This document shows, piece after piece, positions 5,200 through 64,000 of a DNA stretch of 64,000 nt. Within the stretch, counting starts at the first letter, position 1. Each line of letters begins with the position of its first letter. A program made the position numbers and the translations under genes. The DNA comes from Mustelus asterias (lineage: Eukaryota): NCBI RefSeq assembly GCF_964213995.1, contig NW_027590680.1, forward strand, positions 62,001-126,000, written 5' to 3'. Below the pieces are notes generated by a model that was given only the letters and a program-made list of their open reading frames with translations, was not told the origin of the DNA and did no database searches.

Positions 5200-5502
5200 C
5201 CTCACCCATTCCATTGTGATGTCACACTCTGACCAATTCCATTGTGATGTCACACTCTCACCCATTCCATTGTAACATCACTCTCACCCATTCCATTGTG
5301 ACCTCACACCCTCACCCATTCCATTGCGACGTCACAGTCTCACCCATTCCATTGTGACGTCACACCCTCACCCATTCCATTGTGACGTCACACCCTCACC
5401 CATTCCATTGTGACGTCACACTCTCACCCATTCCATTGTGACGTCACACTCTCACCCATTCCATTGTGATGTCACACCCTCACCCATTCCATTGTGACGT
5501 CA
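5200..5502. repeat. 28-bp minisatellite (~11 units) containing CRE palindromes
   Basis: Unit ctcacccattccattgtgacgtcacac(c/t); TGACGTCA at 5355, 5383, 5411, 5439, 5495. Confidence 0.92.
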
Positions 5503-57395: not shown

Positions 57396-58844
57396 TTCCA
57401 GGGGTTGGATTCTGCTGTTATTGTTTCAGCTCTCAATTACATCCAGGACTGCATTTTGTTCATTCTCACAGTTAGTCAATGGGGAGGGTCGGAGGGTTTC
57501 TTTCTGCTGGACTGGCCGGTCTCACAACTGCCTCCAGTGGGCTGATGCTCTTTGAGTCTTGTTGCGAATACCTTGTTTTAAATTTCACAAGGATCACAGA
57601 GTGACAGGGTGTGAGGAAGTTAAGCGATATTTAATCAGCATTTCTGTTTGAAACCTCCCAATGCCCATCCAATTTCCTTTGTTCTTGTTTATTGTCTCCA
57701 CTTCCTCCACCCTCGTAGGCAGCGAGTTCCAGGTCATTACCATTCACTGCATCAAAATATTCTTCCTCACATCCGCGCCCCCCTGCCCCCTGCATCTCTG
57801 ACCCAAAACCATAAATCTGTGTCCCCCCTCGTCCCTTCTCCTGTCAGCTAATGGGAACAGCTTTTCTTTGTCCACCTTATCTAAACCTGTCAGAATCTTG
57901 TCCACATCTATCAAATCTCCCCTCAACCTCCTTTGCTCCAAGAGGAACAACCCCAGCCTGACATTGACAATAAAGAACAAACTAACAGAATATGTTAATA
58001 CCTGAAATCAAATGGGAATGTTCAATTTCTGTTTTTAAGAAATTATGAATATATTGTCCTGGACAATAAAGGGATTTGAATAACTCAGCTTGGGTGCAGT
58101 TGAATGAAATGTACCAATCTCGTATCCACCCACAGTCTAGAGGAAATGTGGAATGTGTAGCTGGAAATCCCTCCCTAACAGCTCTGTGGGTGTACTTACA
58201 CCTTAGGCATTGTAGCAGTTCAGGAAGGCAGTGTTGGCGCTGATCGTGGCCGAGGCAGCTACATACAGCCACATATTCTGTTATAATTGAAGGACAGCAG
58301 ATTGAATGTGAGGCATTATGGGACTGCACTATCTTGACCACATTCTTGTGACTGCTCAGTTTCTGCAATCATGAACCATTCCGAACAGTATATCTAAATC
58401 TCTAACCACAGAATGTGTGGCTGCTTTGATTTAGAAATCTCCAGGCCCACCAAGTTCAAACCAGGCAGATCAGCAGTCAGAAATAGTGGCAATAGCCAAA
58501 CTGTGAATCGTCTTACTGAATTTCAATGGGAACAGAGGACCAGGTGAGAATATTTACTCAGAATGAGTTAGAATTAAACTTATTCCAGGACGGGCTGGTG
58601 TTCAGTGGCTGAGATTCCCGAATCTGTTAAAAGGGGGTCTGACCAATCAACAAACAGTGGTCGGTAGTTCGGTAAGAAGCGTTCTCATGCATTATTTGAA
58701 TTATTTTATCATAAATTTGTGATCAGAACTGTGAGGGACTTGTAACCCAATAGTTGTTGAATTGACGGTAAACTCCAAGTAGCACTGGACTGAAAAGGGG
58801 GTCTGACCAAGAAGTGAAGTGATCTCAGGCATTGTTTAAATTAC

Positions 58845-59283
58845 ATCATCATTGGCCAACTTCCCCTTTGTGACGTCACAGTGGAGTCGTCCCTGAATCA
58901 GCCAATAGGAATCACTCTGCTCCGCGGTGACACCCCGGGTTCCAGTGAGCAGGCCCGGGCGCGCGGACCTGGGAGCCCCGCCCCCACCCATTGTTCCCCT
59001 CCCCCTACACCACATTGAGCCAAGGTTTCCAGGCAACCGGCTGACGGCTCCGGCCAGAGTGAGAAGCCACTCGGTGAGCTCCCCCTCCCCCCGGCCCGGG
59101 ACTGCGCATGTCCAAGGGAGAGGGAAGCTGCGAATTGCAGGGCAGATCCCACCCCCCGACCTTCTTTGGGATTGACGAACGAGTTGGAGGACTGGAAGGA
59201 GTTTGGCCAATCAGAGCGCGGGCTTTGTGTGAATGAAGATTGAGCTTCAGACAGACTCAAACTTCCTCCTGTCGCCAACATCT
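58845..59283 (+). promoter_or_regulatory. CpG-island promoter and putative non-coding exon 1
   Basis: gtgacgtcac CRE at ~58870, CCAAT boxes, actgcgcatg, then ...ccaacatct|gtgagt donor consensus at 59284. Confidence 0.6.
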
Positions 59284-59289
59284 GTGAGT

Positions 59290-60529
59290 GGGAAAGATTG
59301 GATTGTCCAGCCAGTCCACCATGTTGGCCGTTCGCTTTGCGTGTTGGCCAGTATAGTGTGCTCCAGGCAGGGGGCGAGCAGAGGATAAGGAGTTCAAGGC
59401 GGGCTTAATGCGCGCCTTGCGGTGAGCTTTTGGAAATGTGGCCGCTGGGAGGAACGCCTTGGTCGGCGTGAAGTTTCTGTTTCAAGTGCTTGGGTTCGTG
59501 ACTTGTGCAAGAACTTTTTGTTTCGGCTGGGGCTTGTTGAATGCTGCTCTCGCTGGGATTCCTGTGCCTTGAAAGGCGTGGCCCAGGGAGATGCAATCTC
59601 GGAAGACCCAAGCCAGGGAGGAGCCATTTTGGAACTATGGTTTCGGAAGGTTCAGCCGCGGAAGGTGTGACCCCAGACGGTGCAGCCCCAGTGGGTGTGA
59701 TTTTGGAAGATCTGGCCCGGAGTGGTGGACTTTGGAGGACTGCAGTTGAGCGTTGTCGACTTCGGACGGTGGAATGTTGATGGGCGAAGCTCTGGAAGGC
59801 GATGCCTCCGAAATGTTTCACAATTGTATGGTTGTTCATGGATTGTTTGTTATTGTAATATGTGGTTTTCCTGTTATGGTAGTTGGTGGTTTGTTCCGGC
59901 CCCCGTCTATTTTCTTGCGTTATTTGTGGCCTGGGGGGCATCCCCCCCTGGATAAAGTCACCCCCGGGGGGTGTGACATCCACTTGGGGAAAGTTCTGGG
60001 TGGTGAAGCCCCGGATATAGTAACACCAGAGGGATTTTTATTCTCCGGGAGAAAAATTGGGAAGGCAGGCCCGAACTGAGTACCCTGGAGAGACTCTCCC
60101 ACCGCCCCGGCTGAAATTCCGGAAGGGATTCCGGATTGAGTAGGCGGGGTGGTCTCCCCGATTTCCCCCCTCCGGCTGAACATCCGTAAGGTGTAACCCC
60201 CGGATATGAGTACCACTGGAGGGTTGCATCCCCCGGCAGGTGGACAAACCCAGGGGACGGTGCCCTTATGCTTCAGTGTTTATTTTTTGTTGTGTACAGT
60301 TGTAGTGTTGTGTTAATGTTTGTAGATTTGTAGATTATGATTTGTAAATGGAGGTGTATTTTGAGGGCAATGCCCTGGAAAACTGTAATTGACGATGAAC
60401 CCTTCCGAAATGGAAGGTAGTAACTGATAAATGGATGGCGTTAGCCATTGGTAATGTATTTTTTCACATTTGTTCTTTGTGCATTTGTAATTGTTTTGTA
60501 TTAACGTATTTGTAATAAACAAAAAGAAA
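59290..60529 (+). mobile_element. Unclassified non-coding A-tailed element, copy 1 (one structured module)
   Basis: Bounded by ccaacatctgtgagt at 59275-59289 and 60530-60544; ends aataaacaaaaagaaa. Confidence 0.6.
59928..60455 (+). ncRNA. Predicted structured RNA module with five GAA/AGUA loop E-type hairpins
   Basis: GAA/AGUA pairs at 60005/60019, 60051/60079, 60113/60139, 60178/60209, 60397/60419 inside stems; pairing-preserving substitutions in module B. Confidence 0.65.
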
Positions 60530-60544
60530 CCAACATCTGTGAGT

Positions 60545-62397
60545 GGGAAAGATTGGATTGTCCAGCCAGTCCACCATGTTGGCCGTTCGCTTTGCGTGTT
60601 GGCCAGTATAGTGTGCTCCAGGCAGGGGGCGAGCAGAGGATAAGGAGTTCAAGGCGGGCTTAATGCGCGCCTTGCGGTGAGCTTTTGGAAATGTGGCCGC
60701 TGGGAGGAACGCCTTGGTCGGCGTGAAGTTTCTGTTTCAAGTGCTTGGGTTCGTGACTTGTGCAAGAACTTTTTGTTTCGGCTGGGGCTTGTTGAATGCT
60801 GCTCTCGCTGGGATTCCTGTGCCTTGAAAGGCGTGGCCCAGGTAGATGCAATCTCGGAAGACCCAAGCCAGGGAGGAGCCATTTGGGAACTATGGTTTCG
60901 GAAGGTTCAGCCGCGGAAGGTGTGACCCCAGACGGTGCAGCCCCAGTGGGTGTGATTTTGGAAGATCTGGCCCGGAGTGGTGGACTTTGGAGGACTGTAG
61001 TTGAGCTTTGTCGACTTCGGACGGTGGAATGTTGATGGGCGAAGCTCTGGAAGGCGATGCCTCCGAAATGTTTCACAATTGTATGGTTGTTCATGGATTG
61101 TTTGTTATTGTAATATGTGGTTTTTCTGTTATGATAGTTGGTGGTTTGTTCCGGCCCCCGTCTATTTTCTTGCGTTATTTGTGGCCTGGGGGGCATCCCC
61201 CCCTGGATAAAGTCACCCCCGGGGGGTGTGACATCCACTTGGGGAAAGTTCTGGGTGGTGAAGCCCCGGATATAGTAACACCAGAGGGATTTTATTCTCC
61301 GGGAGAAAAATTGGGAAGGCAGGCCCGAACTGAGTACCCTGGAGAGACTCTCCCACCGCCCCGGCTGAAATTCCGGAAGGGATTCCGGATTGAGTAGGTT
61401 CGGGGTGGTTTCCCCATTTCCCCCCTCCGGCTGAACATCCGTAAGGTGTAACCCCCGGATATGAGTACCACTGGAGGGTTGCATCCCCCGGCAGGTGGAC
61501 AAACCCAGGGGACGGTGCCCTTATGCTTCAGTGTTTATTTTTTGTTGTGTACAGTTGTAGTGTTGTGTTAATGTTTGTAGATTTGTAGATTATGATTTGT
61601 AAATGGAGGTGTATTTTGAGGGCAATGCCCTGGAAAACTGTAATTGATGATGAACCCTTCCGAAATGGAAGGTAGTAATTGATAAATGGATGGTGTTAGC
61701 CATCGGTAATGTATTTTTCAGATTTGTTCTTTGTTCATTTGTAATTGTTTTGTAATATCGTGTTTGTACTAACCAACGGAAAATCTTTGCATTGTTTGTG
61801 GCCTGGGGGGTATCCCCCCCCCTCCCCTCCCCTCCCCTGGATAGAGTGACCCCCGGGGGGTGTGACATCCAGTTGGGGAAAGTGTCTGGGGCACCCAGAG
61901 GGGTAACACCGGGGGGGGTTTTGTTCTCCGGGAGAAAAATTGGGAAGGCAGGCCGAATTGAGTATCCCGGAGAGCTTTTCCCACCGCCCCAGCCGAAAAT
62001 CCGGAAGGCAGTCCGGATTGAGTAGGTTCGGGGTGGGTTTCCTGTCCCCCCGCCTCCAGTCGAACATCCGTCAGGTGGAACCCCCGGACCTGAGTACCTC
62101 TGGAGGGTTGCATCCCCCGGCAGGGGAAAAACCCGGGAGGCGGTGCCCTGGAGGGCGGCGGATATGCTGCAATGTTTATTCTTGTTGTGTTGTACTAATG
62201 TTTGTCACTTTGTAGATTATGATTTGTAATTGGAGGTGTATTGAGAGGGCAATGCCCTGGAAAACTATGACCGTTAGTGAACCCTTCCGAAATAGAAGAT
62301 AGTAACTGATAAATGGATGGCGTTAGCCATTGGTAATGTATTTTTTGTGTATTTGTAATTGCTTTGTATTAACGTATTTGTAATAAACAAAAAGAAA
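60545..62397 (+). mobile_element. Same element, copy 2 (modules A ~61180-61790 and B ~61797-62397)
   Basis: Near-identical to copy 1 plus a second diverged ~610-bp module; followed by ccaacatctgtgagt at 62398-62412. Confidence 0.6.
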
Positions 62398-62412
62398 CCA
62401 ACATCTGTGAGT

Positions 62413-64000
62413 GGGAAAGATTGGATTGTCCAGCCAGTCCACCATGTTGGCCATTCGCTTTGCGTGTTGGCCAGTATAGTGTGCTCCAGGCAGGGGGCGA
62501 GCAGAGGATAAGGAGTTCAAGGCGGGCTTAATGCGCGCCTTGCGGTGAGCTTTTGGAAATGTGGCCGCTGGGAGGAACGCCTTGGTCGGCGTGAAGTTTC
62601 TGTTTCAAGTGCTTGGGTTCGTGACTTGTGCAAGAACTTTTTGTTTCGGCTGGGGCTTGTTGAATGCTGCTCTCGCTGGGATTCCTGTGCCTTGAAAGGC
62701 GTGGCCCAGGGAGATGCAATCTCGGAAGACCCAAGCCAGGGAGGAGCCATTTTGGAACTATGGTTTCGGAAGGTTCAGCCGCGGAAGGTGTGACCCCAGA
62801 CGGTGCAGCCCCAGTGGGTGTGATTTTGGAAGATCTGGCCCGGAGTGGTGGACTTTGGAGGACTGTAGTTGAGCGTTGTCGACTTCGGACGGTGGAATGT
62901 TGATGGGCGAAGCTCTGGAAGGCGATGCCTCCGAAATGTTTCACAATTGTATGGTTGTTCATGGATTGTTTGTTATTGTAATATGTGGTTTTCCTGTTAT
63001 GGTAGTTGGTGTTTTGTTCCGGCCCCCGTCTATTTTCTTGCGTTATTTGTGGCCTGGGGGGCATCCCCCCCTGGATAGAGTCACCCCCGGGGGGTGTGAC
63101 ATCCACTTGGGAAAAGTTCTGGGTGGTGAAGCCCCGGACATAGTAACACCAGAGGGATTTTTATTCTCCGGGAGAAAAATTGGGAAGGCAGGCCCGAACT
63201 GAGTACCCTGGAGAGACTCTCCCACCGCCCCGGCTGAAATTCCGGAAGGGATTCCGGATTGAGTAGGCGGGGTGGTTTCCCCCATTTCCCCCCTCCGGCT
63301 GAACATCCGTAAGGTGTAACCCCCGGATATGAGTACCACTGGAGGGTTGCATCCCCCGGCAGGTGGACAAACCCAGGGGACGGTGCCCTTATGCTTCAGT
63401 GTTTATTTTTTGTTGTGTATAGTTGTAGTGTTGTGTTAATGTTTGTAGATTTGTAGATTATGATTTGTAAATGGAGGTGTATTTTGAGGGCAATGCCCTG
63501 GAAAACTGTAATTGATGATGAACCCTTCCGAAATGGAAGGTAGTAATTGATAAATGGATGGTGTTAGCCATCGGTAATGTATTTTTCAGATTTGTTCTTT
63601 GTTTATTTGTAATTGTTTTGTAATATCGTGTTTGTACTCACCAACGGAAAATCTTTGCATTGTTTGTGGCCTGGGGGGTATCCCCCCCCCCCCCCTGGAT
63701 AGAGTGACCCCCGGGGGGTGTGACATCCAGTTGGGGAAAGTGTCCGGGGCACCCAGAGGGGTAACACCGGGGGGGGTTTTGTTCTCCGGGAGAAAAATTG
63801 GGAAGGCAGGCCGAATTGAGTATCCCGGAGAGCTTTTCCCACCGCCCCAGCCGAAAATCCGGAAGGCAGTCCGGATTGAGTAGGTTCGGGGTGGTTTTCC
63901 TGTCCCCCCGCCTCCAGTCGAACATCCGTCAGGTGGAACCCCCGGACCTGAGTACCTCTGGAGGGTTGCATCCCCCGGCAGGGGAAAAACCCGGGAGGCG
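62413..64000 (+). mobile_element. Same element, copy 3 (two modules, cut by the window edge)
   Basis: Near-identical to copy 2. Confidence 0.6.

Follow-up and report, generated by a model that had tools for sequence, protein, structure and literature searches.

The stretch of DNA considered here, referred to as the window, comprises 64,000 nucleotides of the Mustelus asterias genome (contig NW_027590680.1, positions 62,001 to 126,000 of the forward strand; positions below are those of the window). Its surroundings are a vertebrate C2H2 zinc-finger cluster with CR1-like long interspersed elements (LINEs), and its last part, positions 59290-64000, is a head-to-tail array of a retroposon, with copies of 1.24-1.85 kb and 15-nt target-site duplications between them. 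The unit consists of a 625-nt segment X, followed by at least one 610-nt module (A, A' or B in the window) and then by a fixed 3' end with AATAAA. The 15-mer CCAACATCTGTGAGT is found between units at 59275, 60530 and 62398, and beyond the window (locus L021) a fourth unit (X, A) and a last 15-mer are followed by sequence that elsewhere continues the empty site. The initial annotation of this DNA had proposed a stand-alone structured RNA, made of serial loop E (GAA/AGUA) hairpins and starting at 59928. That start does not hold, as the repeat begins at 59275 and continues past the window, and the hairpins make up the 3' half of a young retroposon that codes for no protein, not an RNA gene in its own right; what had been missed is that they belong to a high-copy, target-preferring, non-autonomous element. 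The array and its upstream flank are made up as follows.

58800..59289, + strand: putative promoter and non-coding exon 1 of a C2H2 zinc-finger gene (an exon as judged from sequence), with CCAAT boxes, GC-rich, ending in the donor-like hexamer GTGAGT.
59275..59289, + strand: target-site duplication 1, 15 nt, CCAACATCTGTGAGT; the empty site at locus L240 runs straight into the intron.
59290..60529, + strand: element copy 1 (X and module A), with AATAAA at 60514-60519 and an A-rich fixed 3' end.
59290..59914, + strand: segment X, the non-coding 5' part, whose first 133 nt are swapped for other heads in other subfamilies.
60530..60544, + strand: target-site duplication 2.
60545..62397, + strand: element copy 2, made of X, A' from 61180 (degenerate AATAAA at 61768-61773) and B from 61797 (AATAAA at 62382).
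62398..62412, + strand: target-site duplication 3.
62413..64000, + strand: element copy 3 (X, A', B), whose end lies 255 nt past the window.

Genome-wide, there are 245 exact 3' ends of the element (control 0), and 124 of them are directly joined to the zinc-finger target (control 0). Searches returned 408 candidate copies, the best 40 at 99-100% identity; all 150 scored matches to segment X stand at 96-100%, and identity among young copies is 95-100%. All 25 dispersed copies stop short of the 5' end; 12 of the 25 carry a duplication of 9-17 nt (as called by script), and CC occurs within the first four bases in 48 of 50 distinct other 3' flanks. The fixed 3' end, the 5' truncation, the duplications and the nicks preceding CC are marks of target-primed reverse transcription, and on these sequence features the element is almost certainly a retroposon of the non-LTR (long terminal repeat) kind. 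It was also found in public sequencing runs of two organisms (one run may be the source sample), and its presence in independent public runs indicates that it is not an assembly artefact.

The element shows no coding capacity, in that it lacks an open reading frame (ORF) for a reverse transcriptase or endonuclease and segment X has no Pfam match. Segment X was tried as a remnant of ORF1 and rejected: its 48-aa frame has no Pfam match and matched the element itself only, and no recovered Tx1 protein. Other identities were rejected as well. A short interspersed element (SINE) transcribed by RNA polymerase III (Pol III) does not fit, as Rfam gave no tRNA, 5S or 7SL head and the internal T4-T6 runs from 59427 on rule out Pol III, and the Rfam search of 59200-62450 gave no U1/U2 small nuclear RNA-derived head of the SINEU type. 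Penelope-like elements are recognised by an associated RT-GIY-YIG ORF and a hammerhead ribozyme; no ORF adjoins any fetched copy, and no hammerhead was found with Rfam. Split repeats of the DIRS/Ngaro kind and LTR status are ruled out by the 5' truncations and duplications. In the head of segment X, at 59346-59404, there are weak A-box- and B-box-like words; T runs follow them within 30 nt, and they have no Rfam match.

Module duplication took several forms among the copies, with up to three modules, and internal AATAAA signals are degenerate or deleted. Higher-order periods in the arrays at loci L027 and L028 indicate that unequal crossover contributes to arrays as well. An array within an LTR-like element (loci L296-L297, G000:C19:82812987-82832936), in which 150-nt 5'-truncated stubs are repeated with 16-nt duplications between them, is the result of many successive insertions at a single site. 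Junctions of other kinds were also seen: one copy (L022) has a duplication of more than 100 nt, and at their 5' junctions another (L023) has a perfect inverted repeat and a third (L002) possible inverted extra sequence. Two copies (L009, L020) lie just upstream of sequences that we presume to be tRNA-Val-like.

The target 15-mer ends in GTGAGT and lies 3' of a conserved CCAAT-box region and 5' of a conserved pyrimidine-rich stretch. GTGAGT is present in 25 of 33 distinct target contexts, stretches 73-98% similar to 58800..59289 stand upstream of many other copies, and a zinc-finger ORF follows on the same strand 1.9 kb past the array end. Judged from this context, the target is likely to be the exon-1 splice donor of C2H2 zinc-finger genes. 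Elsewhere in the window, at 5201-5502, a 28-bp tandem repeat of 10.9 copies with the word TGACGTCA lies upstream of a zinc-finger gene.

The zinc-finger target is also used by a LINE that we take to be of the Tx1 group, on the basis of its ORF1 and ORF2 end motifs together with its target behaviour: its 3' end is joined to the target at 104 junctions (control 0). Among 30 inspected loci with the Tx1 tail, 6 have the end of a Tx1-type ORF2, and the rest are a tRNA-headed short element, a second short element or 15-nt stubs. Tx1-type ORF2 ends of about 1.3 kb, truncated at the 5' side, are seen at zinc-finger exon-1 sites in L205, L212, L217, L223-L225; L235-L240, and no full-length Tx1 member was recovered at these sites. 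The first short element measures about 120 nt, has a tRNA-like head (presumably tRNA-Arg) and a Tx1 3' tail, and occupies the same exon-1 site at about position 1400-1520 (loci L207, L210, L211, L214-L216, L219-L221, L226, L229, L230, L232 and L233); it is likely a Tx1-dependent SINE. The second, also non-coding and Tx1-tailed, is found at the same site at about position 1270-1520 in L206, L208, L218, L222, L228, L231 and L234. The hairpin element does not have the Tx1 tail in common with these: agreement is confined to the last seven or so nucleotides of the oldest subfamily, BLAST gave no match to the 3' untranslated regions (UTRs) of Tx1, and the Tx1 3' UTR is without AGTA hairpins. A Keno-type Tx1 was rejected as the partner, as its full-length copies (recovered via PF23057 and PF13966) target U2 and have nothing in common with X, A or B. 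Keno-type Tx1 elements with U2-derived 5' ends were seen at L081-L100, for example in a tandem array with a period of 8035 bp at G000:C24:44816019-44936387.

Older relatives of the element, at 66-88% identity, extend the link to Tx1. Four subfamily layers are all non-coding down to about 66-70%, and searches with older modules and tails gave non-coding relatives only among the best candidates scored. Some older copies are inserted at TCCCCTAAT, just upstream of an ORF that we take to be a Harbinger-type Myb/SANT ORF, and others at TCCCTGATT in LTR-like elements. An element bearing a reverse transcriptase (PF00078) lies in tandem with an older copy, directly behind it, at the Harbinger site, further tandem pairs are found at loci L248 and L316, and the oldest subfamily ends in AAAAGAG, as do Tx1 elements. 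As the older relatives use LTR and Harbinger targets in common with Tx1, Tx1 is the likely mobiliser; with the zinc-finger site added, sequence comparison makes it probable that Tx1 drives the mobility of the element. The heads of the subfamilies differ and match former insertion places, being LTR-derived or the end of zinc-finger exon 1, and full-length copies far from zinc-finger genes carry an LTR-derived head together with the end of zinc-finger exon 1 (L296, L299, L301), which speaks for promoters being borrowed. A tRNA-like retrocopy, which we assume to be of tRNA-Tyr, was seen at the LTR site of the oldest subfamily (L328:1235-1360).

The hairpins that drew attention to this DNA occupy the following positions in module A of copy 1.

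59994..60031, + strand: hairpin 1, GAA at 60005 and AGTA at 60019; without an inner 5' arm, absent from module B, no fold predicted.
60041..60092, + strand: hairpin 2, GAA at 60051 and AGTA at 60079; 94% of cells paired.
60101..60153, + strand: hairpin 3, GAA at 60113 and AGTA at 60139; z -6.16, 89% of cells paired.
60168..60223, + strand: hairpin 4, GAA at 60178 and AGTA at 60209; z -1.75, 85% of cells paired.
60364..60376, + strand: small 5-bp hairpin 5' of hairpin 5, with five identical pairs in 7 of 7 subfamilies.
60392..60427, + strand: hairpin 5, with a GAAC/UAGUA 4x5 loop and AGTA at 60419; best candidate for a sarcin-ricin/loop E motif.
60434..60449, + strand: terminal 6-bp hairpin with a GUUA loop.

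A further stem (hairpin 0) is seen at 59950-59980; in older subfamilies it has AGTA on the 5' side opposite GTAA, and it is altered in A and B. All five AGUA motifs of the initial annotation (60019, 60079, 60139, 60209 and 60419) are confirmed as AGTA, and module B keeps four of them, as had been said (61961, 62021, 62093 and 62301), with hairpin 1 lost. The five motifs of module A do not amount to five hairpins, as for hairpin 1 no fold is predicted (z -0.68, with a pair probability of 0.00 in A) and hairpin 4 would fold partially, with a pair probability of 0.43-0.45 in A and of 0.14 and 0.00 in B. In single folds hairpin 3 is strong (z -6.2, -5.5), hairpin 2 modest in A (-1.8) and strong in B (-4.8), hairpin 5 modest (z -2.3, -2.4) and hairpin 4 weak (-1.8, -0.8). 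In a bracket test that asks for GAA..AGTA and no fewer than 6 pairs out of 7 in the outer arm, A1 has 3 sites and B1 has 4, with 0 on the reverse strand; dinucleotide shuffles match these counts in 1/1000 (A1) and 0/1000 (B1) cases, and 110 background windows of 540 nt average 0.1. The + strand had been proposed as the folded RNA, and this agrees with the fold of 59928-60270 (z -3.13 on the + strand vs -1.74 on the - strand). Nor had a known family been recognised, and the Rfam scan of the window likewise gave 0 matches at gathering score; a relaxed scan (E up to 5) of 59200-62450 gave 7 matches, all below gathering and treated as chance, the best being SNORA64 on the minus strand at 24.9 vs 35 bits.

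By fold and alignment, hairpins 2, 3 and 5 have GAA facing AGUA across a 4x5 loop with a helix on either side; hairpin 4 is ambiguous and hairpin 1 lacks this arrangement. The lower non-canonical (tSH) pair is U.C in hairpin 5, G.A in hairpins 2 and 3, and A.C in hairpin 4 of older copies, all of them listed variants of the sarcin-ricin motif, which allows C.C, U.C and C.A flanking pairs (PMC8450098, PMC6164485). The GAA/AGUA loops probably adopt true sarcin-ricin geometry. The suggested amplification of one hairpin unit applies to hairpins 1-4, which in older copies have GAA-x-A-TCCG..CGGAC-xx-AGTA in common and, on that sequence, descend from one unit; hairpin 5 is of different sequence. One copy (L159:1820-1850) has hairpin 5 inverted in situ, which would be expected if its stem favours template switching.

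Conservation was assessed by sorting 80 copies into seven subfamilies. Among the GAA/AGUA columns of hairpins 2-5, 1 of 28 varies between subfamilies vs 22 of 51 other loop columns (Fisher P 9e-5), which bears out the expectation that the motif is more conserved than neighbouring loop bases, and stem columns vary less than loop columns (20/108 vs 22/51, P 0.001); both Fisher P values are optimistic, the columns within a motif being non-independent and the seven subfamilies related. Private changes after insertion are alike in the two sets, at 62/749 (8.3%) in the motif and 90/1296 (6.9%) in the other loop columns. The comparison gives us good confidence that the GAA/AGUA motif was kept by selection through several older subfamilies. 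At the pair level 38 of 54 pairs are invariant. The covariation that had been claimed is significant in hairpin 5, one of four hairpins tested, and so is weaker than was implied: in 22 gap-free older copies, with young copies left out, the score is 0.217 vs 0.157+-0.013 (0/500 shuffles; slid controls 0.04-0.13), a score that the relatedness of the copies inflates. RNAalifold recovers the same helices of hairpin 5, and its outer stem was rebuilt in the young subfamilies after a 10-nt deletion. Hairpin 2 is borderline to weak, with 25/500 shuffles (20 of 26 rows plus 2). The changes from A to B that had been quoted as preserving or improving pairing are all present in the alignment, but the favourable ones only had been listed; in the exchange of gatggt/gccatc for gatggc/gccatt one pair is gained and another weakened, and A of copy 1 is already in the "B" form.

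A number of observations weigh against a Tx1-copied element with selected loops. About half of the element 3' ends lie outside the zinc-finger site, the Tx1 copies fetched at that site are 5'-truncated and frameshifted in 6 cases out of 6, and no autonomous element with these hairpins or this tail was found among the best 40-150 candidates scored per search. Covariation is absent from hairpin 3 (267/500 shuffles; alternative-fold alignment of 18 of 30 rows plus 2, with mis-matched, truncated and deleted rows dropped) and from hairpin 4 (432/500 shuffles; 29 of 35 listed rows plus 2 window copies, with one mis-matched row and near-duplicates dropped). Pair changes between subfamilies keep 11 pairs and break 7, where private changes keep 100 and break 124 (P 0.14). 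In module B two C-G pairs in the inner stem of hairpin 5 have become C.A, which the initial annotation did not list. Hairpins 3 and 4 have competing folds (hairpin 3 in older copies) because their CCGG arms are self-complementary, and in young A and B the lower non-canonical pair of hairpin 4 is G.C, which PMC8450098 reports as never seen and destabilising.

The mechanism that we propose runs as follows. At the zinc-finger site a copy without a promoter of its own would be transcribed by RNA polymerase II (Pol II) from the host gene promoter, and the transcript would end at the AATAAA of the element. The duplication would leave an intact donor upstream of the element, so that splicing would remove the element from the host mRNA. 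A Tx1 protein nicking before CC would reverse transcribe the element RNA in trans; each insertion would recreate the target and so let arrays grow, and loss of AATAAA from internal modules would give two- and three-module RNAs. As the other passengers at the site copy the Tx1 tail and the hairpin element does not, the loop array is proposed as the route to the enzyme: by analogy, an alternative route that would run through a host factor, most likely at the ribosome. Proteins of the 5S ribonucleoprotein (RNP) such as RPL5 would be the lead candidates, again by analogy. RPL5 binds the loop E of a viroid and TFIIIA does not bind that loop (PMC6164485). A TFIIIA/C2H2 link had been suggested from the location in a zinc-finger cluster, but the same hairpins occur at LTR-like and Harbinger sites and hairpin-free elements occur at the same zinc-finger site, so that the location is explained by choice of DNA target. 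Recruitment of a reverse transcriptase or RNP, also suggested, is a plausible role for the hairpins to judge by sequence, and the specific proposal that the loops are protein-binding sites in enzyme capture is tentative, at somewhat under even chances. The account as a whole, of a Tx1-copied retroposon with loop-E-type loops as repeated protein-binding sites aiding enzyme capture, is the one that we favour on balance.

Its strongest rival, which we consider unlikely, is that the element is a non-autonomous LINE that arose by internal deletion. The module would then be inherited from the 3' UTR of an autonomous Tx1/L1 family, lost or so far unfound, whose own ORF1p and ORF2p bind the loops directly by stringent tail recognition. 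The T-rich, AATAAA-ended tail resembles other Tx1 tails in this genome, the low-complexity repeat of segment X could be a decayed ORF end, and the searches for a parent covered the best candidates; but the subfamily layers are non-coding throughout the depth given above, the two recovered Tx1 families have short, unrelated 3' UTRs devoid of such hairpins, and segment X matches neither Pfam nor any recovered ORF. Less probable still is that the hairpins serve survival of the RNA rather than enzyme capture, by aiding its export from the nucleus, shielding it from decay, or setting the balance of splicing and early polyadenylation in the intron-1 transcript. The RNA would be an unspliced, intron-derived Pol II product needing to escape splicing and decay, modules were duplicated up to three times, and in viroids loop E motifs have a part in trafficking and in the binding of splicing factors (PMC6164485); set against this, the hairpins are older than the move into zinc-finger introns, and the element sequence shows no U-rich loops of triple-helix type. 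That the stems and motifs are an unselected by-product of unit duplication in CCGG-rich sequence is very improbable. The common origin of hairpins 1-4, the lack of covariation in hairpins 3 and 4, their alternative folds and the non-significant keep/break ratio would suit it, but not motif columns that are near-invariant between subfamilies yet mutate normally after insertion, nor a hairpin 5 that differs in sequence and keeps the same loop with both stems rewired. A self-cleaving ribozyme of hairpin or hammerhead type, trimming co-transcripts, can practically be dismissed: co-transcribed retroelements often use ribozymes (PMC8216279) and the outline of the larger loops is like that of loop B in the hairpin ribozyme, but Rfam gave no match with either the gathering or a relaxed threshold, U41, U42, A38 and C25 are required in loop B (PMC8216279) and the U41 position is G in all of the present loops, and the module lies 3', away from the 5' junction, with captured 5' heads retained.

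With the Tx1-copied retroposon as the preferred reading, the closest described system is crocodilian SINEU with Tx1-Mar (PMC4494074). Like the element, SINEU is non-coding, was assigned to Tx1 by common target, and has tandem copies around the duplication; it likewise has 5' truncation, flank-captured 5' extensions, no internal promoter and no LINE with the same 3' end in that description, and its transcription starts from the flanks (PMC4494074). Crocodilian Tx1-9_AMi targets Harbingers and Tx1-8_Crp targets LTR elements (PMC4494074). Compared with SINEU as described there, the element differs in having no U1/U2 head, a length of 1.2-2.5 kb rather than <500 bp, an AATAAA end, a target that is the putative splice donor of a host gene family and a body that is a 530-nt hairpin array. 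From the sarcin-ricin loop and eukaryotic loop E it differs in the number of such loops, four or five to a module with as many as three modules in one RNA, and in having the GAA strand 5'. SVA elements, unlike this one, are moved by L1, have a poly(A) tail and show no site preference, and kinship in sequence is not expected. The likeness is that SVA is about 2 kb, composite, non-coding and of Pol II type, with a GC-rich repeated structured domain, and that one subfamily is transcribed from a host gene promoter with captured exon sequence (in part PMC4494074). The proposed element also resembles Alu by analogy, as a passenger that uses a ribosome-associated RNA mimic, in dimeric form, to catch the ORF2p of another element. 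In the Alu-SRP9/14 model docking is at the ribosome, and Alu derives from 7SL and is transcribed by Pol III; the present element differs in having no ancestry from a known RNA gene. Dewa and Mutsu are further target-specific autonomous families of Tx1. Keno, Kibi and Koshi of the same group share with the element multicopy transcribed targets and capture of target 5' sequence, and differ in being autonomous and in targeting RNA genes, microsatellites or transposons (PMC4494074). Known shark SINEs, as listed in PMC3747384, are tRNA-headed partners of CR1. Our literature search found no description of the element family, of a zinc-finger exon as a Tx1 target, or of a retroposon that carries loop-E arrays, with the target tables in the supplement of PMC4494074 outside its scope; the class of element is already known, and Repbase or Dfam may well list the family.

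How a LINE reverse transcriptase is captured in the lack of a common tail is understood for few non-coding passengers. Here a dated series of subfamilies keeps an RNA motif while switching targets, from LTR-like elements to Harbinger to zinc-finger exon 1, and so offers ready-made mutants. At its broadest, and by analogy, the element would represent a vertebrate class of Pol II retroposon with no ancestry from a known RNA gene, whose multivalent loop-E mimics dock 5S-RNP or ribosomal factors, and hundreds of zinc-finger exon-1 donors would form a promoter-supplied, spliced-out safe harbour common to Tx1 LINEs and several SINEs; we regard this wider picture as speculative and improbable as it stands. 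If Tx1 does aim here at the splice donors of a family of protein-coding genes, that would be a type of target that we have not found in print, and through early polyadenylation the element may shape the expression of shark zinc-finger clusters.

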